Of a DNA stretch of 64,000 nucleotides, positions 37,443-57,175 are shown in pieces. How positions within the stretch are numbered: the stretch's first letter is position 1; the number at the start of each line of letters is the position of its first letter. This stretch comes from a virus (taxonomy: Duplodnaviria > Heunggongvirae > Uroviricota > Caudoviricetes): IMG/VR virus record IMGVR_UViG_3300021400_005610; one strand, given 5' to 3'. The translations under genes were made by a program, and so were the position numbers. A model generated the notes under the pieces. The model ran no database searches. It saw only the letters and a list, made by a program, of their open reading frames with translations, and was not told the origin of the DNA.

Positions 37443-37581
37443 TCTAAGTTGAATAGTTTGACACAATTGTTGAAAGTACGGAATTGTTGAGAGTACGGCG
37501 ACGGTGATCATAAATTGATGGTTGCCGCCGCCGTTTCTAATATGCTTTGTATTATTTTATGGGAAGGAGGCGCTGACAAAT

Positions 37582-42563: not shown

Positions 42564-42592
42564 TTGACAATGCTTTGGGGAAAGAGTATAAT
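42564..42592 (+). promoter_or_regulatory. sigma70-like promoter (TTGACA-17-TATAAT) driving the leader of the tRNA array
   Basis: Consensus hexamers at 42564-42569 and 42587-42592. Divergent from the minus-strand promoter described above. Confidence 0.65.
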
Positions 42593-42879: not shown

Positions 42880-42950
42880 GTATGGAAAGGAAATATGGGT
42901 AGAGCATATGGAACCGACATATGGAAACGACATGTGGAATTGAATCGCCT
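42880..42950 (+). repeat. short direct repeats (c)atatggaa x4-5 at ~15 bp spacing
   Basis: agtATGGAAagg aaATATGGGtag agcATATGGAAccgac ATATGGAAacgac ATGTGGAAttgaa, immediately upstream of the terminator. Confidence 0.45.
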
Positions 42951-42952
42951 GT

Positions 42953-42998
42953 GTGAGGAAACTCGAAAGAGACCAAAGCACAGGCGATTTTTATTTCA
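42953..42998 (+). terminator. rho-independent terminator
   Basis: cgcctgtg ...25 nt loop... cacaggcg followed by atttttattt. Confidence 0.6.
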
Positions 42999-43006
42999 TT
43001 GAATAT

Positions 43007-43081
43007 TGGTTCGTAGCTCAATGGCAGAGCAATCGGCTGTTAACCGATAGGTTGGGGGTTCGAGTCCCCCCGTTCCAGCCA
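43007..43081 (+). tRNA. tRNA-Asn (GTT)
   Basis: Cloverleaf with D-stem gctc/gagc and anticodon loop ctGTTaa. T-arm ggggg-ttcgagt-ccccc and an encoded CCA. The acceptor stem has two central U-U mismatches. Confidence 0.5.
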
Positions 43082-43101
43082 TGGTTCATAGGAGGTACGA
43101 T

Positions 43102-43368
43102 ATGAAATTACGACATGTGTGCGAAGTCTGTGGGAAAGAGGAAGTATTGACTCCTGATGAAGCATTTGAAAAAGGATGGGATTATCCTCCGAGAATGGGG
43201 ATGTTTGGAGTGTTATCGCCAAGAACCTGTGGTGATTGTGCGATGGTCGATACGATCTGGTGGAAATTGATGTATCAGAATGTGAAATCTGAAGATTTAT
43301 CTGATAAAGATAAGTTGACTTTGTCTCGTATCTTGAATGAACCAGCAAGTATTTTAGTTGATGAGTGA
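43102..43368 (+). CDS. Zn-ribbon protein (CxxC...CxxC), hypothetical
   Basis: AGGAGG RBS precedes ATG 43102. Contains CEVCGK...CGDC. Confidence 0.5.
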   Translation: MKLRHVCEVCGKEEVLTPDEAFEKGWDYPPRMGMFGVLSPRTCGDCAMVDTIWWKLMYQNVKSEDLSDKDKLTLSRILNEPASILVDE

Positions 43369-43376
43369 ATGGGTAT

Positions 43377-43453
43377 GGACTGGAAGCTAACTCGGTAGAA
43401 GCGCTTGGTTGAAGCCCAAGAGGAGCGGGTTCGACTCCTTGCCTAGTCCACCA
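43377..43453 (+). tRNA. aberrant tRNA-like element (Phe-like GAA anticodon arm), possible pseudo-tRNA
   Basis: Ends in CCA. The anticodon arm is cttgg-ttGAAgc-ccaag. The T-like arm aggag-cgggttcga-ctcct has a 9-nt loop. The acceptor ggactgg/cc(t)agtcc needs a 1-nt bulge and there is no variable loop. Confidence 0.3.
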
Positions 43454-43467
43454 TAGTTTGAAAGGAG

Positions 43468-43977
43468 ATGTTTAATTTGGGCGAAATGTTTATGAGGCCA
43501 AATGGTCAAGCAGTATTGCTGCAGGACATTGCGAAAATCGCAGCGGAATATATGGCGCGTAGTCCTATGTCACATTATGAGGTGACGGTAGGTACCGATA
43601 GCCAGAATTTCGATAAGACAAAGATGGTTGAGGTTATCGCATTACACCGTGTTGGTAGCGGTGGCATCTTCTTCTATCGTGTGAACTATGTGCGTCGTAT
43701 TGATAATCTGCGTCAGAAGATTCAAGAAGAAACGCAACGTAGTTTGTCCGTGGCGGACGGTTTGTTTAGTGAGATTGAAACGCAGTTAACTCACTTTGGT
43801 GTGGACATCAATGATATGGATATTCATTTCCAGATTCATTGCGACGTCGGCTACAACGGAAGCACGAAGGCTCTGATCCAAGAAATTGTTGGATGGGTTC
43901 AAGCAATGGGCTATGATTGTGCAATTAAGCCAAACAGCTATGCTGCAAGCGGAATTGCCAATAAATATAGCAAATAA
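43468..43977 (+). CDS. DUF458/YkuK-like RNase-H-fold protein (tentative)
   Basis: AAAGGAG RBS. TVGTDSQNF...MVEVIALHRVGSGGIFFY resembles the YkuK family. The family assignment is from memory and not verified. Confidence 0.45.
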   Translation: MFNLGEMFMRPNGQAVLLQDIAKIAAEYMARSPMSHYEVTVGTDSQNFDKTKMVEVIALHRVGSGGIFFYRVNYVRRIDNLRQKIQEETQRSLSVADGLFSEIETQLTHFGVDINDMDIHFQIHCDVGYNGSTKALIQEIVGWVQAMGYDCAIKPNSYAASGIANKYSK

Positions 43978-43981
43978 AAGG

Positions 43982-44014
43982 TTTCGGAGCGGAGATTTCG
44001 CTCCCGTTCCGAAA
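43982..44014 (+). terminator. stem-loop terminator
   Basis: tttcggagcgg agattt cgctcccg ttccgaaa is a nested inverted repeat. Confidence 0.45.
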
Positions 44015-44020
44015 TCATAT

Positions 44021-44098
44021 GTTGGCGGTAGCTCAATTGGTGAGAGCATCGGGTTGTGGCCCCGAAGGTTGCGAGTTCGAGTCTCGTCCGTCACCCCA
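44021..44098 (+). tRNA. tRNA-His (GTG)
   Basis: Anticodon loop ttGTGgc. An extra 5' G(-1) pairs with discriminator C, the His hallmark. T-arm gcgag-ttcgagt-ctcgt and an encoded CCA. Confidence 0.75.
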
Positions 44099-44136
44099 TG
44101 ATGGCGTAAGTCATCAAAAGAAAGGACTTTATTGGA

Positions 44137-44733
44137 ATGTTTTCAGAGAAAAATAGAAAGTTGGTCGAAGCATACCAGAATGGGTATCATCCGACAGGAC
44201 AAAATTATGAATATTATGTTGCTTGTGAATTTGAAGCATTGGGCTATAAGACCTATGTTACTCGTGCAACAGGGGATTTTGGTACGGATGTGATTGTGGA
44301 GATCAATCGCTATTTTAAGATCATTTTTCAATGTAAGTATTATAGTTCAAAGATTGGAAATCATGCTGTACAGGAGATATGTGCAGCAAAAGAGTATTAC
44401 AAGGCACAATTGTGTGTTGTAATTACAAATAACACATATACAGAAGCAGCTATGCAACTTGCTGAAGCAAATCATATACTTTTGATTCAAAATTTTGACG
44501 TAGGCGATAATATTGAGTCGGTATGTGAAGTGTTAGGGTTAATCCCTGAAAAGTACGTTACGTTAAACAAATTGAAGCTAAATGATGCATCTGCGGAGCG
44601 AGATTATCTTGTGAAACAAGTGCATGCTTTGGAAGAGGAGTTATTTGATTATCGAGTGGATCCGTGGTGGAATCCTGTTTCGATGTGGGATGACGAACCT
44701 GAGATTGAAGAGTCTGATGAAAATAGTGGTTAA
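44137..44733 (+). CDS. Mrr-cat (restriction endonuclease-like) domain protein
   Basis: GDFGTDVIVE...FQCKYY is the D-(E/Q)xK PD-(D/E)xK-like core typical of the Mrr N-terminal catalytic domain. Confidence 0.55.
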   Translation: MFSEKNRKLVEAYQNGYHPTGQNYEYYVACEFEALGYKTYVTRATGDFGTDVIVEINRYFKIIFQCKYYSSKIGNHAVQEICAAKEYYKAQLCVVITNNTYTEAAMQLAEANHILLIQNFDVGDNIESVCEVLGLIPEKYVTLNKLKLNDASAERDYLVKQVHALEEELFDYRVDPWWNPVSMWDDEPEIEESDENSG

Positions 44734-44734
44734 T

Positions 44735-44809
44735 GCGTGTGTCGTCTAACGGTGAGGATATCAGCCTTCCAAGCTGAGGGTACGGGTTCAATTCCCGTTA
44801 CACGCTCCA
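44735..44809 (+). tRNA. tRNA-Gly (TCC)
   Basis: Acceptor gcgtgtg/tacacgc, anticodon loop ctTCCaa, T-arm acggg-ttcaatt-cccgt, CCA. Confidence 0.8.
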
Positions 44810-44810
44810 T

Positions 44811-44886
44811 GGCAGAGTTAAGGAAGTGGTTGCCTTGCAGGTCTCATAAACCTGATATACGGGTTCGAATCCCGTCTCTGCTACCA
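44811..44886 (+). tRNA. tRNA-Met (CAT) elongator (or Ile-lysidine)
   Basis: Anticodon loop ctCATaa, T-arm acggg-ttcgaat-cccgt, CCA. Confidence 0.75.
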
Positions 44887-44889
44887 TAT

Positions 44890-44965
44890 GCTCTTGTAGC
44901 GCAACAGGTAGCGCGGCTGATTTGTAATCAGTAGGTTGCAGGTTCGATTCCTGTCGGGAGCTCCA
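44890..44965 (+). tRNA. tRNA-Thr (TGT)
   Basis: D-arm gcgc-aacaggta-gcgc, anticodon loop ttTGTaa, T-arm gcagg-ttcgatt-cctgt, CCA. Confidence 0.8.
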
Positions 44966-45053
44966 GCTGTTGTGGCGGAATGGAAGACGCGATAGGCTCA
45001 AACCCTATTGTCATGGAAATGGCGTGTGAGTTCAAATCTCACCAACAGTACCA
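44966..45053 (+). tRNA. tRNA-Leu (CAA), type II
   Basis: Long variable arm. Anticodon arm atagg-ctCAAac-cctat, T-arm gtgag-ttcaaat-ctcac, CCA. Confidence 0.75.
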
Positions 45054-45141
45054 GCCGATGTGGTGGAATCTGGTAGACACCCCAGACTTAAAATCTGGTG
45101 TTCGTATGAGCGTACGGGTTCGAGTCCCGTCATCGGTACCA
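45054..45141 (+). tRNA. tRNA-Leu (TAA), type II
   Basis: Anticodon arm ccaga-ctTAAaa-tctgg, long variable arm, T-arm cggg-ttcgagt-cccg, CCA. Confidence 0.75.
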
Positions 45142-45162
45142 CGAACATTAGAGAAAGGATGT

Positions 45163-45305
45163 ATGAAAAGATGTGCAAGCAGCTATCTATGGATGATATA
45201 GGATATTTTCTCTATATGCAGTCGCAAGAAGAGAAAGATGAAGATTTAGAAAATACAGAAGATGAAACATGCATCAGTGACGGAATGGAAGACGTGACAG
45301 GCTAA
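45163..45305 (+). CDS. small acidic ORF (47 aa), doubtful
   Basis: GAAAGGA RBS plus an ATG between two tRNAs. The longer track ORF 45060-45305 overlaps a tRNA and is rejected. Confidence 0.25.
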
Positions 45306-45358
45306 GAACCTGTTGTCCTTAACGGGGCGTGTGAGTTCGAATCTCACCTGATGTACCA
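45271..45358 (+). tRNA. tRNA-Leu with apparent AAG anticodon, type II
   Basis: Same architecture as the Leu(CAA) gene. The anticodon arm acagg-ctAAGaa-cctgt reads AAG at 34-36, which is unusual for bacteria. T-arm gtgag-ttcgaat-ctcac, CCA. Confidence 0.6.
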
Positions 45359-45444
45359 GGGTCGGTGAGCGGAATTGGTAACGCAGCGGGCTGTAACCCC
45401 GTGGCCTTTTGGCATTCCTGGTTCAAGTCCAGGTCGACTCACCA
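45359..45444 (+). tRNA. tRNA-Tyr (GTA), type II
   Basis: Acceptor gggtcgg/tcgactc with two G-U pairs. Anticodon loop ctGTAac, long variable arm, T-arm cctgg-ttcaagt-ccagg, CCA. Confidence 0.75.
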
Positions 45445-45450
45445 ATATTT

Positions 45451-45538
45451 GCACGAATGGCGGAACGGAAGACGCGCTGGTTTCAGAGGCCAGTGTCACG
45501 AAAGTGGCGTGAGAGTTCAAATCTCTCTTTGTGCACCA
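45451..45538 (+). tRNA. tRNA-Leu (CAG), type II
   Basis: Anticodon arm ctggt-ttCAGag-gccag, long variable arm, T-arm gagag-ttcaaat-ctctc, CCA. Confidence 0.75.
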
Positions 45539-45630
45539 GGGTTGGTGTGGCGAATTGGTGAAGCCAGCGGACTGTAAATCCGTCACCCACAGGGTAAACA
45601 TTGGAGGTCCGAGTCCTCCCCAGCCCACCA
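45539..45630 (+). tRNA. tRNA-Tyr (GTA) second copy, type II
   Basis: Acceptor gggttgg/ccagccc, anticodon loop ctGTAaa, long variable arm with a ccc-aca-ggg hairpin, T-arm ggagg-tccgagt-cctcc, CCA. Confidence 0.7.
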
Positions 45631-45633
45631 TAT

Positions 45634-45710
45634 GGCTCTGAGGGAAAACAGGTTGATCCGCCTGCCTGTCACGCAGGAGATAGCGGGTTCGAGCCCCGCC
45701 AGAGTCGCCA
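45634..45710 (+). tRNA. tRNA-Asp (GTC)
   Basis: Acceptor ggctctg/cagagtc, anticodon arm cctgc-ctGTCac-gcagg, T-arm gcggg-ttcgagc-cccgc, CCA. Confidence 0.75.
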
Positions 45711-45711
45711 T

Positions 45712-45802
45712 GACTGTGTGGTGTAATGGAAGTCGACTTAAATATATAGCACACCAAGTGGTCTCTTAGGAGGTTCAGGTTCGATTCCTGACACAGTCGC
45801 CA
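45712..45802 (+). tRNA. aberrant ~91 nt tRNA-like element (acceptor and T-arm intact, no canonical anticodon arm found)
   Basis: Acceptor gactgtg/cacagtc, T-arm tcagg-ttcgatt-cctga and CCA are all clean. The internal ~60 nt contains a ggtgt...acacc helix and I could not locate a 5-7-5 anticodon stem-loop. Confidence 0.3.
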
Positions 45803-45862
45803 AGTCCATAGGGCAATAGCAGAGGTATCGTGACAATCACTATTGCCGACGATCTATGGACT
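45803..45862 (+). ncRNA. 60-nt perfect extended hairpin (not a tRNA)
   Basis: agtccatag-ggcaatag ... ctattgcc-gacgat-ctatggact forms 9 bp + 8 bp helices around a 20 nt loop, wedged between two tRNAs. Confidence 0.35.
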
Positions 45863-45867
45863 AATCT

Positions 45868-45943
45868 GGGGTTGTAGCTCAACTGGGAGAGCGCCTGCCT
45901 TGCAAGCAGGAGGTAGAGGGTTCGACACCCTTCAGCTCCACCA
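45868..45943 (+). tRNA. tRNA-Ala (TGC)
   Basis: A G3-U70 pair (Ala identity) is present. Anticodon arm cctgc-ctTGCaa-gcagg, T-arm gaggg-ttcgaca-ccctt, CCA. Confidence 0.85.
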
Positions 45944-46032
45944 GGTTAGGAAAGCCGTTAAGAAACGAGATATCTGTTTCGATGTTACTGATATGGACGG
46001 ACAAGTGAGTTGTGATGGTTCGGCTCACATAT

Positions 46033-46108
46033 GGATTGATAGCTCAGATGGTAGAGCAGGGGACTGAAAATCCCCGTGTCGCTGGTTCAATTCCAGCTCA
46101 ATCCACCA
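46033..46108 (+). tRNA. tRNA-Phe (GAA)
   Basis: Acceptor ggattga/tcaatcc, D-arm gctc-agatggta-gagc, anticodon arm gggga-ctGAAaa-tcccc, T-arm gctgg-ttcaatt-ccagc, CCA. Confidence 0.85.
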
Positions 46109-46185
46109 GGACCGTTAGGTCAATTGGTTAGACCACTCGGCTCATAACCGAATAGTTCTGGGTTCGAGTCCCAGGCGGTCCACCA
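46109..46185 (+). tRNA. tRNA-Met (CAT) second copy (elongator, or Ile2-lysidine)
   Basis: Anticodon loop ctCATaa. It lacks the initiator GGG/CCC anticodon-stem signature. T-arm ctggg-ttcgagt-cccag, CCA. Confidence 0.7.
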
Positions 46186-46190
46186 TCGAT

Positions 46191-46267
46191 GTCCCATTAG
46201 CTCAGTGGACAAGAGTAGTACTCTCCTAAAGTACAAGTCGATGGTTCGAATCCATCATGGGACGCCA
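46191..46267 (+). tRNA. tRNA-Arg (CCT)
   Basis: Acceptor gtcccat/atgggac, anticodon arm gtact-ctCCTaa-agtac, T-arm gatgg-ttcgaat-ccatc, CCA. Confidence 0.8.
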
Positions 46268-46276
46268 AATAAATAT

Positions 46277-46354
46277 GGTGCCATAGTCGAACTGGTTGAA
46301 GACACTGGCCTTTCAAGCCAGAGAGTCGGGGTTCAAGTCCCCGTGGCATCACCA
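46277..46354 (+). tRNA. tRNA-Glu (TTC)
   Basis: Acceptor ggtgcca/tggcatc, anticodon arm ctggc-ctTTCaa-gccag, T-arm cgggg-ttcaagt-ccccg, CCA. Confidence 0.8.
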
Positions 46355-46357
46355 TAT

Positions 46358-46433
46358 GCGGTAGTAGCGCAATTGGTAGCGCACCACCTTGCCAAGGTGG
46401 ATGTTGCGGGTTCAAGCCCCGTCTACCGCTCCA
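46358..46433 (+). tRNA. tRNA-Gly (GCC)
   Basis: Acceptor gcggtag/ctaccgc, anticodon arm ccacc-ttGCCaa-ggtgg, T-arm gcggg-ttcaagc-cccgt, CCA. Confidence 0.85.
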
Positions 46434-46511
46434 GGTCCCTTCTTCTAATTGGTTTAGGAAGTTGGCCTCTCAAGCCAAAAATGCTGAGTTCGAGTCTCGC
46501 AGGGATCACCA
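46434..46511 (+). tRNA. tRNA-Glu (CTC)
   Basis: Acceptor ggtccct/agggatc, anticodon arm ttggc-ctCTCaa-gccaa. The T-arm has one mismatch. CCA. A C34 Glu isoacceptor is uncommon in low-GC bacteria. Confidence 0.65.
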
Positions 46512-46588
46512 GTGCCCGTAACTCAATGGAATAGAGTAACGGTCTTCTAAACCGTAAGTTATGGGTTCGAATCCCATCGGGCATGCCA
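46512..46588 (+). tRNA. tRNA-Arg (TCT)
   Basis: Anticodon arm acggt-ctTCTaa-accgt, T-arm atggg-ttcgaat-cccat, CCA. Confidence 0.8.
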
Positions 46589-46622
46589 TGGGTTTGTATA
46601 AATCAAAGAAAGGATGTGAAAA

Positions 46623-46859
46623 ATGGTATCTGTAAGGGTGTTATTGAATTCATTGGAAAAGGTTAAGTCTTTTGTTTCGATTGTCGGTAAGTTTGATGCA
46701 GATATGGAAATTGTTTCTGGTAAGTATATTGTTGATGCAAAGTCTATTATGGGTTTATTCAGTATGAATTTGTTAGAGCCAATGACGTTGGTTATTAAAG
46801 CAGACAATCCTGCTTGTGTGAATGTATTGGATGATATTAGACCATATGTTTATGGTTGA
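46623..46859 (+). CDS. HPr/Crh-like phosphocarrier-fold protein lacking the His15 active site
   Basis: 78 aa with a GAAAGGA RBS. GKYIVDAKSIMGLFSMNL matches the HPr Ser46 region (KSIMG), but the His15 position is replaced (LNSLEK), as in Crh. Confidence 0.55.
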   Translation: MVSVRVLLNSLEKVKSFVSIVGKFDADMEIVSGKYIVDAKSIMGLFSMNLLEPMTLVIKADNPACVNVLDDIRPYVYG

Positions 46860-46862
46860 TAT

Positions 46863-46940
46863 GCGCTTGTAGCTTAATTGGTAGAGCAGCGGACTCTTAA
46901 TCCGAAGGTTTTGGGGGTTCAAGTCCCTTCAGGCGCACCA
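46863..46940 (+). tRNA. tRNA-Lys (CTT)
   Basis: Acceptor gcgcttg/caggcgc, D-arm gctt-aattggta-gagc, anticodon arm gcgga-ctCTTaa-tccga, T-arm ggggg-ttcaagt-ccctt, CCA. Confidence 0.75.
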
Positions 46941-46988
46941 TCGAGTCCTACTATTGTCATTAGGCTGTTGAGCCGTAAGGAGGACATT

Positions 46989-47585
46989 ATGAGTTATTAC
47001 TATAATTATTATGTCGGATATAAGAAAGATGGAAAGATTTATCCGTGGGGTCCTTACAATGCGAATGGTAAGTTAGAACCAATGGTCAGTCGTTCCAGAT
47101 CTTTTGCTTCGGATTTACATGAGGAGTTTGATACTGTATCTGATAAGGAAGTTTCAGAAGAACTTCGTAAAGAATTTGAGTATGAGGATTGGAATAAGGT
47201 CAAGCATCTTGATGTAAAATATCTTTCCGAAAAGGATTTACCGACAGGAAGTTATATTAGGACAGGTTATTTTTTGATTAAAGATGTCCAAGCATATGAG
47301 CATGATGAGTATGGTAATTTCGAAGGTTTTTATGATGTCCTTAGTCCTGAAGTTTATGCGGCAAAATTACAGCATGAAATGATGTTTGGTAAGAATCAAC
47401 CTGAGAAAGACGATGAAGGCAATGAATATACAGAGCCAAATGCATCGGATTATATGTACTATGCGTATCCTAATTATGAGACGAAAGAGTACGAATCGTT
47501 CATTCTTCGGCAGTTAATTGAGGCTTTGCGTGATTATCGTTTGGGTAATGATATTGAGTATGTCGTTTTAGAAACGGAAGGTTGA
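46989..47585 (+). CDS. hypothetical protein (Tyr-rich N-terminus)
   Basis: Strong RBS GTAAGGAGG. The track ORF start at 46878 overlaps the tRNA and is rejected in favour of ATG 46989. Confidence 0.55.
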   Translation: MSYYYNYYVGYKKDGKIYPWGPYNANGKLEPMVSRSRSFASDLHEEFDTVSDKEVSEELRKEFEYEDWNKVKHLDVKYLSEKDLPTGSYIRTGYFLIKDVQAYEHDEYGNFEGFYDVLSPEVYAAKLQHEMMFGKNQPEKDDEGNEYTEPNASDYMYYAYPNYETKEYESFILRQLIEALRDYRLGNDIEYVVLETEG

Positions 47586-47596
47586 TCCTTTCGTAT

Positions 47597-47670
47597 CGAG
47601 ATGGTGGTGTAATGGTAGCACGCATCGTTCGGGACGATGAGGCGACGTTCAAATCGTACCATTTCGACCA
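47597..47670 (+). tRNA. tRNA-Pro (CGG)
   Basis: Acceptor cgagatg/catttcg, anticodon arm catcg-ttCGGga-cgatg with G37. The T-arm is weak at 3 bp. CCA. Confidence 0.6.
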
Positions 47671-47696
47671 ATTTCTTATGTAAAGGGGTTAACGGT

Positions 47697-47966
47697 ATGT
47701 TCCATAACATTGTGATTGGCAGACCTTTGGTTGAGCCGTGGAAGTTAATTTCAAGTTCTAAAGAAGAGTTTGAAAGATTTGATAAACGCGATACGTTATT
47801 TACCAATGAGAGGTTTCTTCCAGCTGTGCTTGTAGAAGCAAATGTCGTATCTTCTCGTGGAGAAGTTCGAAGAAATAAACCAGAATTATGTAAGGAACTG
47901 AATAATTTGGATTGTTTGTGGGTAAAATGGGGGAAACAGAAGATTTATGTGATTGTTGGTGAGTAA
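47697..47966 (+). CDS. hypothetical protein
   Basis: ATG 47697 is preceded by AAAGGGG. The track ORF start at 47637 overlaps the tRNA. Confidence 0.45.
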   Translation: MFHNIVIGRPLVEPWKLISSSKEEFERFDKRDTLFTNERFLPAVLVEANVVSSRGEVRRNKPELCKELNNLDCLWVKWGKQKIYVIVGE

Positions 47967-47969
47967 TTT

Positions 47970-48045
47970 GCGTCTGTAGCTTAGGCGGTAGAGCAGCGGA
48001 CTTTTAATCCGAAGGTCGGGAGTTCAAGTCTCCCCAGACGCACCA
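47970..48045 (+). tRNA. tRNA-Lys (TTT)
   Basis: Perfect acceptor gcgtctg/cagacgc, anticodon arm gcgga-ctTTTaa-tccga, T-arm gggag-ttcaagt-ctccc, CCA. Confidence 0.85.
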
Positions 48046-48340
48046 GTGTGTTGGTAGCCAAGCAATAAAAGGCAGTAAGACAATAGCGGTTCCATTAAGC
48101 AGAACACTTGGAGAACGAACTCCAGAGCGCATGGCGGCTAAGAGAGACTCTGTATAGTAAAATGACCGAGTGCTGAAGCATTTATATTATGCAGAGGGAG
48201 ACCCAATCGACAAGGTGAATGAGGTCGAGCCTACGCAGTTTCACCAAATAACGTTGTGTCACTCTGTATGGAACGTCGTGTGATTGATGTCGAAACCTGC
48301 GTCGTGGATGCAGAAGTCGACTACTGCACACCCAACACAC
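48046..48340 (+). ncRNA. candidate ~295-nt structured non-coding RNA between tRNA-Lys and tRNA-Pro
   Basis: No credible ORF on either strand. A terminal 9-bp helix gtgtgttgg(48046)/ccaacacac(48332) closes the element. Internal helices are tggag-aacgaa-ctcca, tcgac-13nt-gtcga, a long-range acgcagtttc/gaaac-c-tgcgt pairing (48234/48292), and tgcag-10nt-ctgca. Confidence 0.4.
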
Positions 48341-48345
48341 ATTAT

Positions 48346-48421
48346 CTGGGTGTAGTGCAATTGGTAGCATGCGTGATTTGGGATCACGTGGTTGTGGGTT
48401 CAAATCCCGCCACTCAGACCA
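48346..48421 (+). tRNA. tRNA-Pro (TGG)
   Basis: Acceptor ctgggtg/cactcag, anticodon arm cgtga-ttTGGga-tcacg with G37, T-arm gtggg-ttcaaat-cccgc, CCA. Confidence 0.8.
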
Positions 48422-48498
48422 AATTTGTGTATTGTGTTATCTCCGTGGCGGATTTATAATTTTTGTAGAAATAAATCCAGAAAGGATGGTAAGTTGAT

Positions 48499-48972
48499 AT
48501 GGCAAATGAAATCAAAAACGGAAGATTGCATGTTGATGGGAAGAGAATTCCGTTGTCTATGGATGAAGCTCGTTCTATGAAGATGAATGCCTTTACAGGA
48601 CGACAGGTATCTGAAGAAGCATCGGTTGAAATTCCTGAAGATAAGAAGGGTCAATATGCTTTTACACAGGATATTCTGCAGAAGAAGATGAAGCCTGATA
48701 AGGAATTGTCGTATACGGAAGATGAATATAAAGCTGCTGAAGATGTGTATGGCAGAATGCGTACAGCACAATCCATGGCTATGGATAGTTTGATGCCATC
48801 TGATGAAGAGTTTAAGGCTTTAAATACCGATGCGTTTACGGCTGTTACGAGGGATGCTGCTGAGAGAGAAGCTGAAGCAAAGCGTCAGGAGCGTTTGAAG
48901 AAAGCCGAAGAATTGTCGTCACGTGTTAGTGAACCGACAGAATCTCCACTGGCAGAGTACGGAATTTATTAA
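48499..48972 (+). CDS. hypothetical protein
   Basis: 157 aa with an AAAGGATGG RBS. Charged and probably helical. Confidence 0.5.
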   Translation: MANEIKNGRLHVDGKRIPLSMDEARSMKMNAFTGRQVSEEASVEIPEDKKGQYAFTQDILQKKMKPDKELSYTEDEYKAAEDVYGRMRTAQSMAMDSLMPSDEEFKALNTDAFTAVTRDAAEREAEAKRQERLKKAEELSSRVSEPTESPLAEYGIY

Positions 48973-49220
48973 AACTTTTTTCTCGAAATCTATTGATTTC
49001 TGAGTAAAAGTATGGTATTATATAGTTGCGTCGGAAAGACGAGAAGAAATGAGAAAGGATGTCACGAAAATGATGAATTTCACTATGAGTCAAAGTTCAC
49101 AGGTCATTATTCGCTGGTCGCAGGTATGCTCCCAGTTTATTTGTCGTGGACGGGTAACTCATTCCTAATGTGAGATCATCTGATTTTCTTTGTGATATTT
49201 GAGAAAAAGGGGAATCACAA

Positions 49221-49270
49221 CACCGTTCGCGATAGGATAGGATTATCCGAAGCGAGCGGTGTTTTTTATT
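49221..49270 (+). terminator. rho-independent terminator
   Basis: caccgttcgc ...21 nt... gcgagcggtg followed by ttttttatt. Confidence 0.6.
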
Positions 49271-49277
49271 AAAAAAT

Positions 49278-49366
49278 GGTAGTGTCGCTCAATGGTGGAG
49301 CAACTGCCTTGAAAGCAGCCAGTCGAGGGCCTCGACCTGCAGGTTCGAATCCTGCCACTACCGCCA
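49278..49366 (+). tRNA. tRNA-Ser (TGA), type II
   Basis: Perfect acceptor ggtagtg/cactacc. Anticodon loop ctTGAaa. Variable-arm hairpin gtcgagg-gcc-tcgac. T-arm gcagg-ttcgaat-cctgc, CCA. Confidence 0.8.
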
Positions 49367-49461
49367 GGTGATATAAACCTAATTGGTAAGGTCCCTGTCT
49401 CGAAAACAGGTAGTAGCCCTGTTAAAGGGGTGTTTCGGTTCAAGTCCGAATATCACCGCCA
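49367..49461 (+). tRNA. tRNA-Ser (CGA), type II
   Basis: Acceptor ggtgata/tatcacc, anticodon arm cctgt-ctCGAaa-acagg, long variable arm, T-arm ttcgg-ttcaagt-ccgaa, CCA. Confidence 0.8.
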
Positions 49462-49466
49462 CAAAT

Positions 49467-49560
49467 GGAGTCGTAAGCCTAATTGGTAAGGCGCCGATTT
49501 GGAAGGTCGGTAGTAATCCTGCTGAGGGGTGTGTTGGTTCGAGTCCAATCGACTCCGCCA
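49467..49560 (+). tRNA. tRNA-Ser (GGA), type II
   Basis: Acceptor ggagtcg/cgactcc, anticodon arm ccgat-ttGGAag-gtcgg, long variable arm, T-arm gttgg-ttcgagt-ccaat, CCA. Confidence 0.8.
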
Positions 49561-49580
49561 TTTGAAAGGATGTGTGAAGT

Positions 49581-49871
49581 TTGACAGAACAAAGAGTATT
49601 GGAATTTATTCATAGACGCTTTCCTCAGGATTGTAACTGGAAGAATGGAAATTGTTATTTCTTTGCAGTGATTCTAAAAAGTAGATTTCCAGAAGGAATT
49701 ATTCTTTACGATGTGATTGACGGTCATTTTGTGACACACATCGATGGACGAAATTATGACTGGTCGGGTGTTGTTTCTGATGAAGGAAAGCATTATTATG
49801 TTGAGTGGGATTATTTCGATGAGTATGATTCTAATCAGAAGAAATCTGTGATTGACGGATGTATTCTTTGA
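49581..49871 (+). CDS. hypothetical protein (TTG start)
   Basis: GAAAGGA RBS 10 nt upstream of TTG 49581. The only upstream in-frame ATG is immediately followed by a stop. Confidence 0.45.
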   Translation: MTEQRVLEFIHRRFPQDCNWKNGNCYFFAVILKSRFPEGIILYDVIDGHFVTHIDGRNYDWSGVVSDEGKHYYVEWDYFDEYDSNQKKSVIDGCIL

Positions 49872-49876
49872 TAAAT

Positions 49877-49951
49877 AGGGGTATGGTGTTAACGGTAGCA
49901 TATCGGTCTCCAAAACCGCAGGTGAGGGTTCGAGTCCTTCTGCCCCTGCCA
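49877..49951 (+). tRNA. tRNA-Trp (CCA)
   Basis: Acceptor aggggta/tgcccct, anticodon loop ctCCAaa on a 4 bp stem, T-arm gaggg-ttcgagt-ccttc, CCA. Confidence 0.7.
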
Positions 49952-50093
49952 CGTTCAGAGTCATGAACTGAACGATATCTTAACGATTCGTAAGTGACGT
50001 AATCAGCTGTAAAGACGTGCCACCTGAAGCATTCGATATGTACGGTGCTTTGGGTGAGATCCGACTATGAATCGGCGAAGACGAATCGGATAT

Positions 50094-50170
50094 AGGGTGT
50101 TAGCTCAGCTGGGACGAGCATTTGTCTTACAAGCAAAAGGTCGTGGGTTCGATCCCCACACACCCTACCA
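50094..50170 (+). tRNA. tRNA-Val (TAC)
   Basis: D-arm gctc-agctgggac-gagc, anticodon arm tttgt-ctTACaa-gcaaa, T-arm gtggg-ttcgatc-cccac, CCA. Confidence 0.8.
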
Positions 50171-50245
50171 TGGGATATGGCGTAATTGGTAACGCATCGG
50201 ACTCTGACTCCGAAGTTACAGGTTCAAGTCCTGTTGTCCCAGCCA
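50171..50245 (+). tRNA. tRNA-Gln (CTG)
   Basis: A U1-A72 pair as in bacterial tRNA-Gln. Anticodon arm tcgga-ctCTGac-tccga, T-arm acagg-ttcaagt-cctgt, CCA. Confidence 0.8.
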
Positions 50246-50320
50246 TGGGTTATAGCGTAAGTGGTAGCGCACGGGACTTTGACTCCCGACGTACAGGTTC
50301 GAGCCCTGTTAGCCCAGCCA
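50246..50320 (+). tRNA. tRNA-Gln (TTG)
   Basis: Acceptor tgggtta/tagccca, anticodon arm cggga-ctTTGac-tcccg, T-arm acagg-ttcgagc-cctgt, CCA. Confidence 0.8.
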
Positions 50321-50414
50321 GGAGACGTAGCATAGTCGGTCGAATGCACCCGCCTGCTAAGCGGGAGAACGGTGAATAATCGTTCCGAGGGTTCGAATCC
50401 CTCCGTCTCCGCCA
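50321..50414 (+). tRNA. tRNA-Ser (GCT), type II
   Basis: Perfect acceptor ggagacg/cgtctcc, anticodon arm cccgc-ctGCTaa-gcggg, long variable arm, T-arm gaggg-ttcgaat-ccctc, CCA. Confidence 0.85.
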
Positions 50415-50453
50415 TGTTGTATTGATTGGCTTTTATTATGAAAGGTTGTGATT

Positions 50454-50960
50454 ATGAGTATAGAAACTGCAGAAGCGTTATTTAAGAAATATGATGGTCA
50501 TATTAATCTTTTACGGAAAAACGAACCGTCATCGTATGCAATCATAAGCGCTGCGTGCTTGAGTGATGATTGTTACGAAGAGTGGCGTAAAGAAATTTTG
50601 GACGGCATAACGCAAATGGGTGTTTCTGATATTTTCAATATTACATGGTTTATTCGTTTTGTGTCTGTATTTAAAGAAATGAATCGGAATGAAACATATC
50701 GGTTTGATTGTTTGGTTGATTTATTGAGAGCATATGTGAAGAGCAATGATTCTTGTAAGATCGAGATATTGCGTAAGATGGTTGGTAATGTTCGTTTCGG
50801 TTATCGAGATGGCTTGCTTTATTGGGTGTTACGAAATACTTCTGGATTTAGTGTCGTAGAGGCTATTATGCAGCAGAATTATGTAAATGTAGATTCTAAT
50901 AATCCTTCTTTAGTTGATCTGAGTGAGCAATATAAGAAGGCTGTATATAAATTTGTGTGA
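50454..50960 (+). CDS. hypothetical protein
   Basis: ATG 50454 has a GAAAGG RBS. The track start GTG 50448 is also possible. Confidence 0.5.
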   Translation: MSIETAEALFKKYDGHINLLRKNEPSSYAIISAACLSDDCYEEWRKEILDGITQMGVSDIFNITWFIRFVSVFKEMNRNETYRFDCLVDLLRAYVKSNDSCKIEILRKMVGNVRFGYRDGLLYWVLRNTSGFSVVEAIMQQNYVNVDSNNPSLVDLSEQYKKAVYKFV

Positions 50961-50965
50961 TATTT

Positions 50966-51042
50966 GACTGCGTACCCAAGTGGCTTAAGGGGGCAGACTG
51001 CAAATCTGTTATTCGTTGGTTCGAATCCAACCGTAGTCTCCA
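50966..51042 (+). tRNA. tRNA-Cys (GCA)
   Basis: Acceptor gactgcg/cgtagtc, anticodon arm gcaga-ctGCAaa-tctgt, T-arm gttgg-ttcgaat-ccaac, CCA. Confidence 0.75.
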
Positions 51043-51119
51043 TCTGGAGTAGCTCAGACGGTTAGAGCGTCCGCCTGATAAGCGGGAGGTCGGCAGTTCA
51101 AGTCTGCCCTTCAGAACCA
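51043..51119 (+). tRNA. tRNA-Ile (GAT)
   Basis: D-arm gctc-agacggtta-gagc, anticodon arm tccgc-ctGATaa-gcggg, T-arm ggcag-ttcaagt-ctgcc, CCA. U1-A72 is unusual. Confidence 0.75.
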
Positions 51120-51195
51120 GTCCCCATAGGCTAATGGAATAGACCCTTCGGCTACGAACCGAACAGTGGAGGTTCGAATCCTCCTGGGGATGCCA
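51120..51195 (+). tRNA. tRNA-Arg (ACG)
   Basis: Acceptor gtcccca/tggggat, anticodon arm ttcgg-ctACGaa-ccgaa, T-arm ggagg-ttcgaat-cctcc, CCA. Confidence 0.8.
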
Positions 51196-51261: not shown

Positions 51262-51912
51262 ATGAAAGAAAATTTAACTGAGTTGGTGTTTATTCTGGAT
51301 AGAAGCGGTTCTATGAGTGCTTTGACAGATGACACAATTGGTGGGTTCAATTCTTTGATTGAGTCCCAGAAAGCAGAAGAGGGCGAAGCGTTCGTCACAA
51401 CTGTATTGTTTGACGATAAGTACGAATTATTGCATGATCATGTGAATATCAAGGATGTTCTGCCTTTGACACGGAAAGAGTATTTCGCAAGAGGTATGAC
51501 AGCATTGTTAGATGCGATTGGTCGTACCATCAATACGATTGGTGAGAGACTTGCAAAGACGCCTGAAGAGGAACGTCCGAGTCGTGTTGTAATTGCCATC
51601 ACGACAGATGGCTTTGAAAATGCAAGTAAGGAATTTACGAAGAAACAGATTAAGGACATGATTGAGCATCAGCAGTCCAAGTATTCTTGGGTGTTTATGT
51701 TCCTTGGTGCAAATATGGACGCTGTTTCTGAGGCTGAGTCTCTTGGTATTCGTGGAACGATGGCAAGAACGTATACGAATTCGAGCAGAGGTGTGGAAAC
51801 TGTTTACACAGCAATGTCTGCTTCGATGAGCTTGGCTCGTGAGGCTAAGTCTTCTGTATGTTTGGATGATTTGGCTGCAGAAATGAGTTCTGCATTGGAT
51901 GAAGTCGAATAA
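51262..51912 (+). CDS. von Willebrand factor type A (vWA) domain protein
   Basis: MIDAS motif DRSGSMS near the N-terminus (ILDRSGSMSALTDD), then conserved T and D positions. GAAAGGAG RBS. Confidence 0.8.
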   Translation: MKENLTELVFILDRSGSMSALTDDTIGGFNSLIESQKAEEGEAFVTTVLFDDKYELLHDHVNIKDVLPLTRKEYFARGMTALLDAIGRTINTIGERLAKTPEEERPSRVVIAITTDGFENASKEFTKKQIKDMIEHQQSKYSWVFMFLGANMDAVSEAESLGIRGTMARTYTNSSRGVETVYTAMSASMSLAREAKSSVCLDDLAAEMSSALDEVE

Positions 51913-53059: not shown

Positions 53060-53110
53060 ATTTGTAGCTTAAATGGGCTTTAGTTCGCATTTAGGAAAGG
53101 ATTGAATGGA

Positions 53111-55672: not shown

Positions 55673-55692
55673 AGTTTGGAGGTTTGTGATTA

Positions 55693-57075: not shown

Positions 57076-57175
57076 TTTGACTATTTAAGAAAAAGCGGTT
57101 GATATATGAATAAAATCGTGTTATACTTTCCTGTGAAAATGTTGGTTTTGACAACAAGAAGGGAGTTGAATCACG

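Follow-up and report, generated by a model that had tools for sequence, protein, structure and literature searches.

A near-complete tRNA array in a giant transferable plasmid-like element from the sheep rumen

[quoted passage not shown] The long arrays of Anabaena and Acidithiobacillus are nearly silent under normal conditions (PMC8421152). Homing endonucleases accompany tRNA arrays, some of which are cryptic (PMC8421152, PMC12803027), and a putative anti-defence role has been assigned to array units (PMC12803027, with reference to van den Berg 2023 and Azam 2024). The array described here is of this known type ("tRNA array unit"), and the family of giant gut and rumen elements that carries it has so far been undescribed. 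The window, i.e. the whole stretch of DNA analysed, is 64,000 nt of a 284-kb sheep-rumen scaffold (IMG/VR record IMGVR_UViG_3300021400_005610), part of which was analysed.

ARAGORN and Rfam RF00005 (gathering threshold) gave an identical set of 36 tRNA genes with RF00005 scores of 29.3-71.3 bits, all on the plus strand, the first starting at 43007 and the last ending at 51195, which is exactly the span given in a preliminary description of this DNA; most of the tRNAs claimed there were called by ARAGORN. Neither program found a tRNA outside the array in the 64-kb window. The 37 genes counted earlier are reached with a degenerate tRNA-like gene (45712-45802), which emerges with relaxed ARAGORN settings; its acceptor stem, T arm and CCA are perfect, whereas the D and anticodon arms are ruined. 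With 36 genes over 8,189 bp, the packing is 4.4 per kb or roughly one every 227 bp, near the one per 200 bp first estimated, and the small ORFs noted between the tRNA blocks are present with good ribosome-binding sites. The features are as follows:

29311..31410, +, MobL relaxase (E 2.6e-53)
37522..41313, +, VirD4/TraG-type coupling protein (start in the source record 20 codons further in)
42564..42592, +, candidate promoter, sigma-70-like consensus TTGACA-17-TATAAT (12/12 matches, the best site of the region)
42944..42997, +, 10-bp hairpin then TTTTTATTT, ending 10 nt 5' of the first tRNA (read from sequence)
43007..43081, +, tRNA-Asn(GTT), CCA encoded (ARAGORN, Rfam 64.5 bits; two U-U mismatches in the acceptor stem)
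43102..43368, +, 88-aa ORF with CxxC...CxxC motifs (gene in source record; no Pfam or PHROG match)
43377..43453, +, aberrant tRNA-Phe(GAA), CCA encoded (ARAGORN, Rfam 43.2 bits)
43477..43977, +, PF04308 (RNase H-like, YkuK/DUF458) protein, 166 aa (E 1.1e-45; tRNAs close on both sides)
44022..44098, +, tRNA-His(GTG), CCA encoded (ARAGORN, Rfam 58.1 bits)
44137..44733, +, Mrr_cat (PD-(D/E)xK) nuclease, 198 aa (E 2.5e-21)
44735..45141, +, five-tRNA run Gly(TCC), CAT, Thr(TGT), Leu(CAA), Leu(TAA) (spacers 1, 3, 0, 0 nt)
45271..45802, +, run Leu(AAG), Tyr(GTA), Leu(CAG), aberrant Tyr(GTA), Asp(GTC), degenerate tRNA-like gene (45712-45802) (spacers 0, 6, 0, 3, 1 nt)
45868..45943, +, tRNA-Ala(TGC) (ARAGORN, Rfam 63.4 bits)
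46033..46588, +, seven-tRNA run Phe(GAA), CAT, Arg(CCT), Glu(TTC), Gly(GCC), Glu(CTC), Arg(TCT) (spacers 0, 5, 9, 3, 0, 0 nt)
46623..46859, +, 78-aa HPr-like ORF (PF00381, E 1.2e-6; gene in source record)
46863..46940, +, tRNA-Lys(CTT) (ARAGORN, Rfam 61.6 bits)
46989..47585, +, 198-aa orphan protein of a family accompanying tRNA clusters in large phage-like contigs
47597..47670, +, tRNA-Pro(CGG) (ARAGORN, Rfam 47.2 bits)
47697..47966, +, 89-aa ORF (gene in source record; no family match)
47970..48045, +, tRNA-Lys(TTT) (ARAGORN, Rfam 70.7 bits)
48046..48345, +, ORF-free 300-nt spacer, candidate non-coding RNA (fold closed by a 9-bp terminal helix)
48346..48421, +, tRNA-Pro(TGG) (ARAGORN, Rfam 64.9 bits)
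48499..48972, +, 157-aa ORF
49220..49268, +, 10-bp hairpin then TTTTTTATT, ending 10 nt 5' of tRNA-Ser (read from sequence)
49278..49560, +, three-tRNA run Ser(TGA), Ser(CGA), Ser(GGA) (spacers 0, 5 nt)
49581..49871, +, 96-aa phage YunG-like ORF (PF24591, E 3.5e-12; phrog_4814)
49877..49951, +, tRNA-Trp(CCA) (ARAGORN, Rfam 54.2 bits)
50094..50414, +, four-tRNA run Val(TAC), Gln(CTG), Gln(TTG), Ser(GCT) (all spacers 0 nt)
50454..50960, +, 168-aa ORF (gene in source record)
50966..51195, +, three-tRNA run Cys(GCA), Ile(GAT), Arg(ACG) (spacers 0, 0 nt)
51262..51912, +, 216-aa protein, phrog_7371, marking the 3' border of the array
53102..63064, +, downstream block: RecD2-like helicase, 460-aa protein, double-AAA ATPase, HD-like protein, SecA paralogue

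The array has 33 distinct anticodons and, as proposed earlier, covers all 20 amino acids. The isotypes listed at that time mostly stand, except that Arg is found three times (CCT, TCT, ACG) and not four, Leu four times (CAA, TAA, AAG, CAG) and not five, and Phe twice and not once. Leu(UAG) and Arg(CCG) are absent from the ARAGORN/Rfam set. The initiator tRNA is likewise absent, neither CAT tRNA having the GGG/CCC anticodon stem; the acceptor ends of the two are G1-U72 and G1-C72. The canonical cloverleaf is kept in 33 of the 36 called tRNAs. In the aberrant Phe (43377-43453) the D stem is only 3 bp long and the T loop 8 nt, and the aberrant Tyr (45539-45630, 29.3 bits) has an odd variable region; together with the pseudo-tRNA at 45712, at least three members seem defective. 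Since the closest pair inside the array is only 82 % identical, the array is old and diversified and does not reflect recent duplication.

The relaxase shows 38-39 % identity to actinobacterial homologues. For the coupling protein, identity is approximately 60 % across 1,153 aa with proteins of Streptomyces and Promicromonospora, and 59-61 % with homologues on plasmids of Streptomyces, Gordonia and Rhodococcus. The backbone also encodes ParA (partition ATPase) along with a P4-type primase and an actin-like protein, and shows synteny to the circular plasmid pGKT2 of Gordonia. The preliminary description had placed the array between a T4SS/relaxase/coupling-protein module and a helicase/SecA2 block. 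The downstream block was found, with the RecD2-like helicase and a SecA paralogue lacking the SEC-C domain; upstream, the relaxase and coupling protein hold, and the T4SS is not supported, as no VirB4 ATPase or other mating-channel gene was recognised in the window and no Walker-A motif was found in its large unannotated ORFs. The relaxase, the coupling protein and the synteny with pGKT2 nevertheless support the conjugative-element reading. The array carrier is a giant transferable plasmid-like element, and its host is a Gram-positive bacterium of the rumen, probably a member of the Clostridia. Judged from the window, a plasmid is more likely than an integrated element.

The 3'-CCA is encoded in all 36 array tRNAs, and at 13 tRNA-tRNA junctions the spacer is 0 nt, so that the CCA lies directly against the +1 base of the next tRNA. 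At such junctions one RNase P cut would complete the 3'-CCA end of one tRNA and the 5' end of the next at once, and the RNase Z and CCA-adding steps would be dispensable; for spacers of 1-9 nt, exonuclease trimming alone would suffice. We infer this RNase P-only maturation from the way the genes are arranged and from what is generally known of RNase P. The array and its small ORFs may be co-transcribed as a few long RNAs, e.g. from the site at 42564-42592, a candidate start of transcription 5' of the array in a region where promoter-like sites overall do not exceed the total of shuffled sequence. The hairpin at 42944-42997 is no textbook terminator because its loop is about 25 nt, and that at 49220-49268 is a possible internal terminator dividing the array into two transcription units. 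These hairpin and T-run signals and the interspersed ORFs speak against one single transcript.

In three related metagenome loci (37-, 76- and 259-kb contigs) every tRNA likewise carries CCA and most spacers are 0 nt; for the window and loci L044, L089 and L092 together, CCA is found on 59 of 59 tRNAs and 0 nt at 29 of 55 junctions. The arrays of L092 and L089 contain runs of the window gene order directly 5' of the same RecD2/AAA/SecA block, and the array is thus a trait of the family: the view of it as incidental or stray cargo does not hold, and it is a conserved module across the giant-element family. L089 has the Ser(TGA), Ser(CGA), Ser(GGA) trio and L092 has Cys(GCA), Ile(GAT), Arg(ACG), both in the window order. 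Identity to the window tRNAs is 81-100 % in L092, Cys excepted, and 73-76 % in L089; positions 50161-50414 match L092 at 93 % identity. The 216-aa gene at the 3' border has 82 % DNA identity in L092, where the array is likewise followed by a gene of equal length.

The array provides no decoder for CUA and CGG, and an AUA decoder is not assured. CTA occurs in frame 6 times in 17,453 codons (about 134 expected), against 263 and 81 occurrences of the trinucleotide in the other two frames; CGG is found 29 times (114 expected) and ATA 52 times (240 expected). Some of the CTA codons may precede the true start, since three of the six lie no further in than codon 13 when the ORFs are given their longest possible start, and for one of these ORFs the source record starts 20 codons further in. 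Genes further downstream on the same scaffold contain no CTA (19 expected). In L102 and L104, with arrays that include Leu(UAG), CTA is at 0.41-0.51 of expectation, compared to 0.04 in the window. The window has a strong G>C strand skew, which disfavours C-containing codons generally. The codon-anticodon match could merely mirror the tRNA set and codon bias of the host. The best reading of the sequence, which we hold with moderate confidence, is that the array would be a private, near-complete elongator tRNA pool, largely matured by RNase P and tuned to element codon usage, supporting translation of the element.

The PF04308 protein and the 198-aa orphan are regular companions of tRNA clusters: PF04308 homologues of L102 and L104 likewise lie inside arrays of 30-34 tRNAs, and the orphan family adjoins tRNAs in 13 of the 17 phage-like loci examined. 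No known domain or fold was matched for the 198-aa protein (46989..47585). Both proteins may serve tRNA processing, protection or array mobility. The Mrr_cat protein resembles the Mrr-like nuclease domain of ZorD and type IV restriction enzymes, and is a possible counterpart of the homing endonucleases in other tRNA arrays. The spacer at 48046..48345 folds at -95.4 kcal/mol (z = -3.8; 0 of 200 shuffles equally stable), with no Rfam match at E up to 10 and no conservation found.

The main rival to translation support is anti-defence, which we regard as possible but doubtful. The array would supply replacement or nuclease-resistant tRNAs for establishment in recipients with defences that cleave host tRNAs at the anticodon loop, such as PrrC/RloC-type anticodon nucleases, PARIS, retron-associated PtuAB and similar systems. 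The same role has been suggested for tRNA clusters of phages and for mycobacterial array units, and it agrees with the phage-type character of the array region (the YunG-like ORF and matches to phrog_7371, phrog_11311 and phrog_4814, besides the orphan family), with the divergent second Tyr(GTA) and Phe(GAA) copies retained in the window and L044, and with the fast divergence of tRNAs from L089. However, known nucleases each target few tRNA species, a need that 33 anticodons exceed, and anti-defence alone does not account for the agreement between the codons left unused and the anticodons that are missing. Anti-defence and translation support are not mutually exclusive.

It is rather improbable that the array is a selfish or neutral passenger, a phage-derived tRNA island spread by its embedded nucleases (Mrr-like, PF04308), without benefit to the element, mostly silent and slowly decaying. 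The nuclease genes do sit among the tRNAs, ORF indels occur among relatives (the 168-aa ORF is missing at its position in L092), the array contains a pseudo-tRNA and two aberrant genes, and tRNAs lie within 10 kb of the coupling gene in only 1 of 52 metagenomic and 0 of 29 actinobacterial relatives. Such a passenger would hardly keep its canonical cloverleaves and CCA ends, or its gene-order runs and zero-spacer packing in related elements with SecA proteins only 61-64 % identical. Certain tRNAs of the window and L092 are 95-100 % identical while adjacent proteins have diverged, which indicates purifying selection.

A non-mobile origin, as a host housekeeping rRNA-adjacent tRNA cluster or part of a large-phage genome, is very improbable: Firmicutes chromosomes usually contain long same-strand tRNA runs (PMC4758250), phage relatives exist for several array ORFs and the scaffold is known only in part, but Rfam gave neither rRNA nor any other cellular RNA gene in the 64 kb, the initiator tRNA is missing, the array lies between the relaxase/coupling module and a block conserved on other contigs of 76-296 kb, the backbone shares synteny with a circular plasmid and encodes partition ATPase, actin-like protein and primase, and PHROG scans gave no match at all for ten unannotated backbone ORFs and no phage structural match for ten ORFs in or beside the array.

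With a private tRNA pool supporting translation, the genes of the element would be translated efficiently regardless of the tRNA pool of the current host. Such host independence would suit a conjugative backbone with relatives in hosts spanning 30-67 % G+C.

ARAGORN predicted 36 tRNA genes in the 64-kb window, all located at 43007-51195 and all on the + strand, and Rfam at gathering thresholds returned the same 36 loci with scores of 29.3-71.3 bits. No RNA family other than tRNA was found in the 64-kb window with Rfam at gathering thresholds, and a search of the gaps between 41300 and 53200 at E values up to 10 gave antisense and chance matches but no further credible tRNA. The density is 4.4 tRNA genes per kb (36 in 8,189 bp), and the 33 different anticodons represent all 20 amino acids. 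With relaxed thresholds ARAGORN also recovered a degenerate unit 1 base after tRNA-Asp. In this decayed tRNA the 7-bp acceptor stem is perfectly paired and the T arm canonical, the variable arm is long and the 3' end reads GCCA, but the D and anticodon arms are broken. With this unit the total is 37, as in the preliminary description, which also had the coordinates and the coverage of the 20 amino acids right; its isotype tally was slightly off, as three Arg, four Leu and two Phe genes are counted here. The array and the individual features discussed in the following are:

42564-42592: perfect TTGACA-17-TATAAT
43007-51195, + strand: array of 36 tRNA genes and one decayed tRNA
43377-43453, + strand: aberrant tRNA-Phe, 43.2 bits
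43477-43977: gene of family PF04308 (RNase H-like, YkuK/DUF458)
45539-45630, + strand: aberrant tRNA-Tyr, 29.3 bits
45712-45802: decayed tRNA

Both CAT tRNAs lack the hallmarks of initiators (acceptor ends G1-U72 and G1-C72, no GGG/CCC anticodon stem in either), and the set thus consists of elongators only. Pairwise identity between the tRNAs has a median of 57 % and a maximum of 82 %, the latter reached by Lys CTT/TTT and Gln CTG/TTG, and the Gln-Gln pair was the only tandem repeat called in the array. As no pair is more than 82 % identical, recent duplication or amplification is ruled out as the origin of the array.

The 3'-CCA is encoded in all 36 genes. At 13 junctions the spacer is 0 nt, the A of the CCA standing directly before the +1 base of the next tRNA, and 8 further spacers are 1-10 nt long, i.e. 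21 of the 35 spacers are at most 10 nt; 13 gaps exceed 100 nt and have ORFs inside. When the window was considered together with three related metagenome loci with arrays (L044, L089 and L092, from contigs of 37, 76 and 259 kb), CCA was encoded in 59 of 59 tRNAs and 29 of 55 junctions were spacer-free. Based on established tRNA-processing biochemistry, a single RNase P cut at the CCA/+1 junction would produce both mature ends at once, so that about one third of the junctions would need neither 3' processing nor CCA addition, and at the short spacers trimming alone would be needed. The universal CCA and the zero-spacer packing suggest a minimal maturation route relying on RNase P only, and synthetic multi-tRNA operons could be designed compactly on this pattern. 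Two signals consisting of a hairpin and a T-run end about 10 nt ahead of the first tRNA and of tRNA-Ser at 49278, on the basis of which the array is likely to be split over more than one transcription unit.

tRNA genes were found within 10 kb of the coupling-protein gene in none of 29 actinobacterial loci (isolate genomes, all Actinobacteria) and in 1 of 52 metagenomic loci. A one-off insertion of the array, first suggested by the latter figure, was overturned by searches starting from the SecA side and from the array ORFs. In elements with the same downstream block of RecD2-like helicase, 460-aa protein, AAA ATPase, HD-like protein and SecA (L089 and L092), the block is immediately preceded by a tRNA array that is packed in the same way and matches the window in runs of gene order. 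In L092 the run is Gln(CTG)-Gln(TTG)-Ser(GCT)-Cys-Ile-Arg(ACG), without any spacer between the genes, and in L089 it is Ser(TGA)-Ser(CGA)-Ser(GGA)-Trp-Ile-Gln-Ser(GCT). The L092 tRNAs are 81-100 % identical to those of the window, except Cys, and the DNA of the array end and the next gene is 82-93 % identical between the two; the 168-aa ORF between the Ser and Cys tRNAs of the window is absent from L092. The junction between the array and the helicase block is supported by an independent assembly. Because matching runs lie upstream of the same block in separate elements, the array is a conserved module of a family of giant elements.

The substantial ORFs of the window are all on the + strand. 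GC skew is strongly positive over the whole 64 kb (+0.17 to +0.32) and AT skew mostly negative. The genes flanking the array are:

Upstream, segregation and replication: actin-like segregation protein, MscS, ParA, P4/D5-type primase-helicase, topoisomerase III
Upstream of the array: block of large proteins without family; lysozyme-domain protein (cell-wall hydrolase)
Upstream of the array: MobL relaxase (PF18555, E 2.6e-53)
Upstream of the array: SPFH protein; ClpB-like double-AAA ATPase
Upstream of the array: VirD4/TraG coupling protein, 1,243-1,263 aa (PF02534, PF12696 and PF10412 matches)
53102-63064, + strand, downstream of the array: RecD2-like helicase, 460-aa protein of no recognised family, CbxX-like double-AAA ATPase, HD-like protein, SecA paralogue without SEC-C
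Beyond SecA on the scaffold: Cna_B/SHIRT surface protein, dCMP deaminase, RNase H

The relaxase and the coupling protein that had been proposed from the sequence are solid, given the MobL E value of 2.6e-53 and the Pfam matches of the coupling protein. The T4SS named together with them is undemonstrated, the VirB4 ATPase not being found in the window: Pfam, NCBIfam, PDB sequence searches and a Walker-A scan revealed no VirB4 among the large ORFs lacking a family, and a 292-aa ORF gave a weak match to the N-terminus of the VirB4 model (E 1.7e-9, 36 bits compared to a cut-off of 590 bits). The mating-channel genes may be located beyond the window or may have diverged too far to be recognised. 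Within it, their expected place is the interval of about 20 kb from topoisomerase III to MobL (9514-29045), where the + strand carries large ORFs that lack a Walker A motif and matched no family, phage protein or PDB entry. This region includes a gene (15061-19608) for a 1,515-aa low-complexity protein rich in Gly, Ala, Ser and Asn with an N-terminal membrane segment; in the gene the G+C is locally higher (0.49-0.53) and 261 bp are duplicated in tandem (18620-19105). It also includes two adjacent genes (19739-20122 and 20337-20678) for paralogous small membrane proteins of 127 and 113 aa with the same weak DUF308/CrgA-like matches.

The SEC-C-less SecA (60635-63064) is encoded close to the large Cna_B/SHIRT surface protein (12601-15531 of L101, the downstream genes of the scaffold). 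SecA and the block upstream of it are kept in relatives, and in L092 SecA is followed by a DUF5684 gene and then by a SHIRT/Cna_B protein. It is possible that the SecA and Cna_B/SHIRT pair forms an accessory secretion system for a mating adhesin.

Genes for capsid, portal, terminase or tail proteins were not found in the scanned ORFs of the window, and a phage genome with a tRNA cluster is an unlikely explanation of the locus. PHROG scans gave no match for 10 backbone ORFs; for 10 ORFs in or beside the array they returned families of unknown function, nuclease families and a marginal tail-fibre match (E 0.006, for the Mrr-like nuclease). The only 'phage' Pfam matches in the window were the lysozyme domain and a YunG-like ORF. 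The flanks contradict a chromosomal or a phage origin of the array locus. No integrase was matched in the Pfam scans of the main ORFs of the window. ParA, the actin-like protein and the P4-type primase-helicase are present in the window. Relatives occur as contigs of 229-296 kb, and backbones homologous to this one also sit in Streptomyces chromosomes.

Exact matches of its proteins assign the window to a scaffold of 284,210 bp (ERZ28612966, SHIW14-1_SAMN02144230-S007 scaffold_28) assembled from sample SAMN02144230, probably from the sheep rumen work published by Shi et al. 2014. The proteins also occur, as exact matches, in run SRR873599 and assembly GCA_001684375.1. For two proteins (43468-43977 and ParA) there was no exact entry, probably owing to differently called starts. 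Megablast of 40000-55000 against PLSDB and INPHARED matched single tRNAs only, i.e. no similar plasmid or phage has been deposited there. The coupling protein and the ClpB-like ATPase (33342-41313) share about 60 % full-length identity with their Streptomyces and Promicromonospora counterparts; for coupling proteins encoded on plasmids of Streptomyces, Gordonia and Rhodococcus the identity is 59-61 %. Identity to actinobacterial homologues is 47 % for the P4-type primase and 38-39 % for MobL. The order of MobL, followed further on by the AAA ATPase, a large protein without assigned function and the coupling protein, is the same in the circular Gordonia plasmid pGKT2. G+C contents of coupling-protein relatives from metagenomes run from 30 % to 59 %, and their contigs often measure 90-291 kb; the window has 41 %. 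Based on these protein comparisons, one conjugative backbone appears to span two phyla, from actinobacterial elements of 65-67 % G+C to relatives of 30 %. Other SecAs without SEC-C, encoded on contigs of up to 296 kb, share 61-64 % identity with the SecA paralogue, and its next-closest matches (53-54 %) are chromosomal SecAs of Lachnospiraceae-type Clostridia. This similarity, together with the downstream Cna_B/SHIRT surface protein, tentatively suggests a host among the Clostridia. Distant coupling-protein relatives (45-72 % identity over the best segment) are found on 155-291-kb contigs of 32-35 % G+C (L049, L053, L073, L083-L085 (BNJS/BNJT) and L072-L076), and their size and composition recall the 'Inocle' giant elements; the 'Inocle' paper treats neither relaxases nor tRNA arrays in any detail.

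Approximately 10 small ORFs with GAAAGGA-type ribosome-binding sites are interspersed between the tRNA blocks. They include the PF04308 gene and genes for an Mrr-type PD-(D/E)xK nuclease, an HPr-like protein and a phage YunG-like protein, several others being without a family, and a phrog_7371 protein is encoded at the 3' border of the array. The PF04308 protein has 217 close homologues. In the window and in both homologue contexts examined, which are on giant contigs, its gene is placed tightly between tRNAs of large arrays: the first context (L102, gene at 10001-10492) has 34 tRNAs, its PF04308 protein being found again on contigs of up to 254 kb, and the second (L104, gene at 10001-10501) has 30 tRNAs on a 337-kb contig. 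A single-sequence pattern scan of IMG/VR gave no PF04308 relatives. The family is described as an uncharacterised RNase H1-like endonuclease (PMC3985635), and its position in arrays of 30-36 genes hints at a tRNA-related role.

The ORF at 46989-47585 encodes a 198-aa protein of a well-conserved family with 411 homologues and the motifs MSYYYNYYIGY, SRSRSFASDLH, PNASDYMYYAYPDY and VILETEG. Pfam, NCBIfam, PHROG and PADLOC gave no hit for it, and no solved or viral structure matched its AlphaFold model, which is of high confidence. The homologues outside the window are on large phage-like contigs with thymidylate synthase, DnaB, Pol III alpha, HNH/I-HmuI nuclease and head-fibre genes, and in 13 of the 17 phage-like loci examined the gene lies at most 3 kb, often about 10-20 nt, from tRNA genes. 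The array therefore has gene content in common with phage tRNA clusters. PF04308/YkuK and this structural orphan are families without an assigned function which repeatedly accompany tRNA clusters.

Two further RNA observations were made. The gap between tRNA-Lys and tRNA-Pro at 48046-48345 is 300 nt long, free of ORFs and predicted to fold better than shuffled sequences (z = -3.8) with a 9-bp closing helix; it had no Rfam match and no homologue in the related loci, and is a candidate non-coding RNA. A 93-nt tRNA with the amber-reading anticodon CTA, possibly a suppressor as in stop-codon-recoded phages, is part of the tRNA cluster on a phage-like contig of 130 kb (L095 and L096, 12003-12095).

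Codon usage was determined from 17,453 codons of 41 window ORFs, with the expectation calculated from position-specific base frequencies. In frame, CTA was observed 6 times compared to 134 expected, CGG 29 times compared to 114 and ATA 52 times compared to 240. In the other two frames of the same ORFs the CTA trinucleotide occurred 263 and 81 times. Three of the six CTA codons are at codon 13 or earlier in ORFs that were extended to the most upstream start possible, and some of these may thus precede the true start; the start of the coupling protein in the source record is 20 codons further in. Of the other three, two are in array ORFs. In seven further genes of the scaffold (L101) CTA was absent, compared to 19 expected. 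The anticodons missing from the array include Leu(UAG) and Arg(CCG), so that it has no decoder for CUA or CGG, and a decoder for AUA is not assured. CTA is likewise avoided in L089 and L092 (0.02-0.07 of expectation), whereas it is at 0.41-0.51 of expectation in the two giant elements with Leu(UAG) in the array (L102 and L104), and CGG is at expectation in the giant element which has both Leu(UAG) and Arg(CCG). In three phage-like contigs CTA is at 0.37-0.48 of expectation. These counts fit a co-adaptation of the codon usage of the element and its tRNA set. The match at CUA, CGG and AUA could equally reflect a bias shared with the host.

A tRNA-Leu(AAG), with A at the wobble position, is kept in all four arrays in which it was looked at (window 45271-45358, L044 11976-12066, L102 and L104). 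Such an A is unusual in bacteria. Going by the avoidance of CUA, we suggest that the Leu(AAG) of the window is not read as inosine.

tRNA array units have been defined by at least 20 tRNA genes in one region and at least 2 tRNA genes per kb (Tran et al. 2016, PMC4758250), and the window has 36 and 4.4, respectively. Of the features defining L-arrays (Santamaria-Gomez et al. 2021, PMC8421152), the arrangement is non-periodic and without tandem accretion, and there is horizontal spread with patchy occurrence and a mobile-element location, arrays being present in L044, L089 and L092 and absent, within 10 kb of the coupling-protein gene, from the 51 remaining metagenomic loci and the 29 actinobacterial ones; the definition further includes a single orientation with co-transcribable closeness, and a set supernumerary to a complete host set. 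The array is a tRNA array unit by both measures and has most of the L-array features. Regarding the conjugative plasmids of the MobL/pGKT2 type, the relaxase, the coupling protein and the synteny are all present, and mating-channel genes were not found within the window.

L-arrays are carried by a plasmid of Anabaena PCC 7120 (26 genes), an ICE of Acidithiobacillus ferrooxidans ATCC 23270 and plasmids of Arthrobacter, Methylibium, Paenibacillus and B. thuringiensis (PMC4758250, PMC8421152). Like these, the array of the window has at least 20 tRNA genes on the same strand at more than 2 per kb without a periodic pattern, near-complete amino-acid specificities, an embedded nuclease gene, and a mobile carrier with patchy occurrence among relatives. 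It differs from them in the MobL/pGKT2-type backbone, the uncultured rumen Gram-positive host, the CCA on every gene of the family with about half of the junctions spacer-free, and the embedded nuclease, which is Mrr-like instead of HNH. PF04308 and the 198-aa protein are unreported as array components in the L-array literature examined. The B. breve plasmid pMP7017 (190 kb, 20 tRNA genes in three transcription units) is likewise a conjugative gut Gram-positive megaplasmid with a multi-operon array, and its codon usage fits its own tRNAs (PMC10832533). However, it covers only 12 amino acids and also has a tmRNA and a manA RNA motif, and its tRNA expression has been measured (PMC10832533). Neither a tmRNA nor a manA motif was found in the window. 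A link to pMP7017 was rejected, there being no Bifidobacterium among the plasmid matches listed for the coupling protein or the primase. Mycobacterial array units are on plasmids including the giant linear pS2b-type of M. avium (PMC5966550, PMC12803027). They resemble the window in decoding 19-20 amino acids, in their location on large, probably conjugative plasmids, in the embedded endonuclease and in divergent second copies, e.g. of tRNA-Tyr(GTA). The mycobacterial plasmids are, however, ESX/T7SS-linked or relaxase-free and linear, with high G+C, compared to MobL, a VirD4-type protein and 41 % G+C in the element studied here.

With Gordonia sp. KTR9 pGKT2 (NC_018580.1) and the plasmids and integrated elements of Streptomyces and Rhodococcus the window shares the gene order and about 60 % identity in the coupling protein and AAA ATPase, but those loci lack tRNA genes near the coupling protein (0 of 29) and have 65-67 % G+C compared to 41 %. 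Similarly to the tRNA clusters of large phages (T4, T5 and uncultured rumen and gut phages), the tRNAs are mixed with small ORFs and nucleases and accompanied by the 198-aa family. T4 makes dimeric zero-spacer tRNA precursors. The surroundings of the array are conjugative instead of viral, the phage clusters sampled were smaller (2-11 tRNAs per locus), and in two of the three phage-like contigs checked CCA was encoded in no tRNA, compared to 36 of 36 in the window.

As arrays are documented on plasmids of Anabaena, Arthrobacter, Methylibium, Paenibacillus, B. thuringiensis and mycobacteria, on pMP7017 and on one ICE (PMC4758250, PMC5966550, PMC8421152, PMC10832533, PMC12803027), this kind of array is already known, and 36 genes is not a record size. 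What is new is the carrier, an undescribed family of giant MobL/VirD4 elements of gut and rumen Gram-positives related to actinobacterial plasmids, of which we found no description in the open-access literature. Also new are the CCA on all genes together with zero-spacer packing, the almost complete lack of CUA and the two recurrent companion proteins.

The favoured reading is that the array supplies a private pool of elongator tRNAs, which would allow the genes of the element to be translated independently of the host pool. The same function has been proposed for pMP7017, with tRNA measurements (PMC10832533), and translation support of the element genes for the Acidithiobacillus ICE array (PMC4758250). 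The main rival explanation is an anti-defence role, as proposed for phage tRNAs and mycobacterial arrays (PMC12803027). It is compatible with a role in translation, and has some support from the phage-type companion genes in the array and from the retention of divergent duplicates of Tyr and Phe. Intact cloverleaves, gene order and packing have all been conserved, which makes a purely selfish island less likely.

The purpose of tRNA arrays on mobile elements is disputed, the proposals being codon matching, response to translational stress and anti-defence. The locus provides a clean natural test case, as the array is kept across giant uncultured gut and rumen elements, the backbone is common to high-G+C actinobacterial plasmids, and the anticodons that the array lacks fall together with codons hardly ever used by the element. 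We consider it possible, although unlikely, that the array is a private, co-evolving translation kit of a nearly complete set of elongator tRNAs, RNase-P-only maturation and the PF04308 and 198-aa factors, which would enable the backbone to cross between Actinobacteria and Firmicutes and to drift from 67 % to 30 % G+C while the codon table shrinks to what the kit can read, leaving CUA effectively unassigned on the element. If such a translation kit exists, the PF04308 and 198-aa proteins would be new tRNA-cluster-specific processing or protection enzymes common to plasmids and phages.
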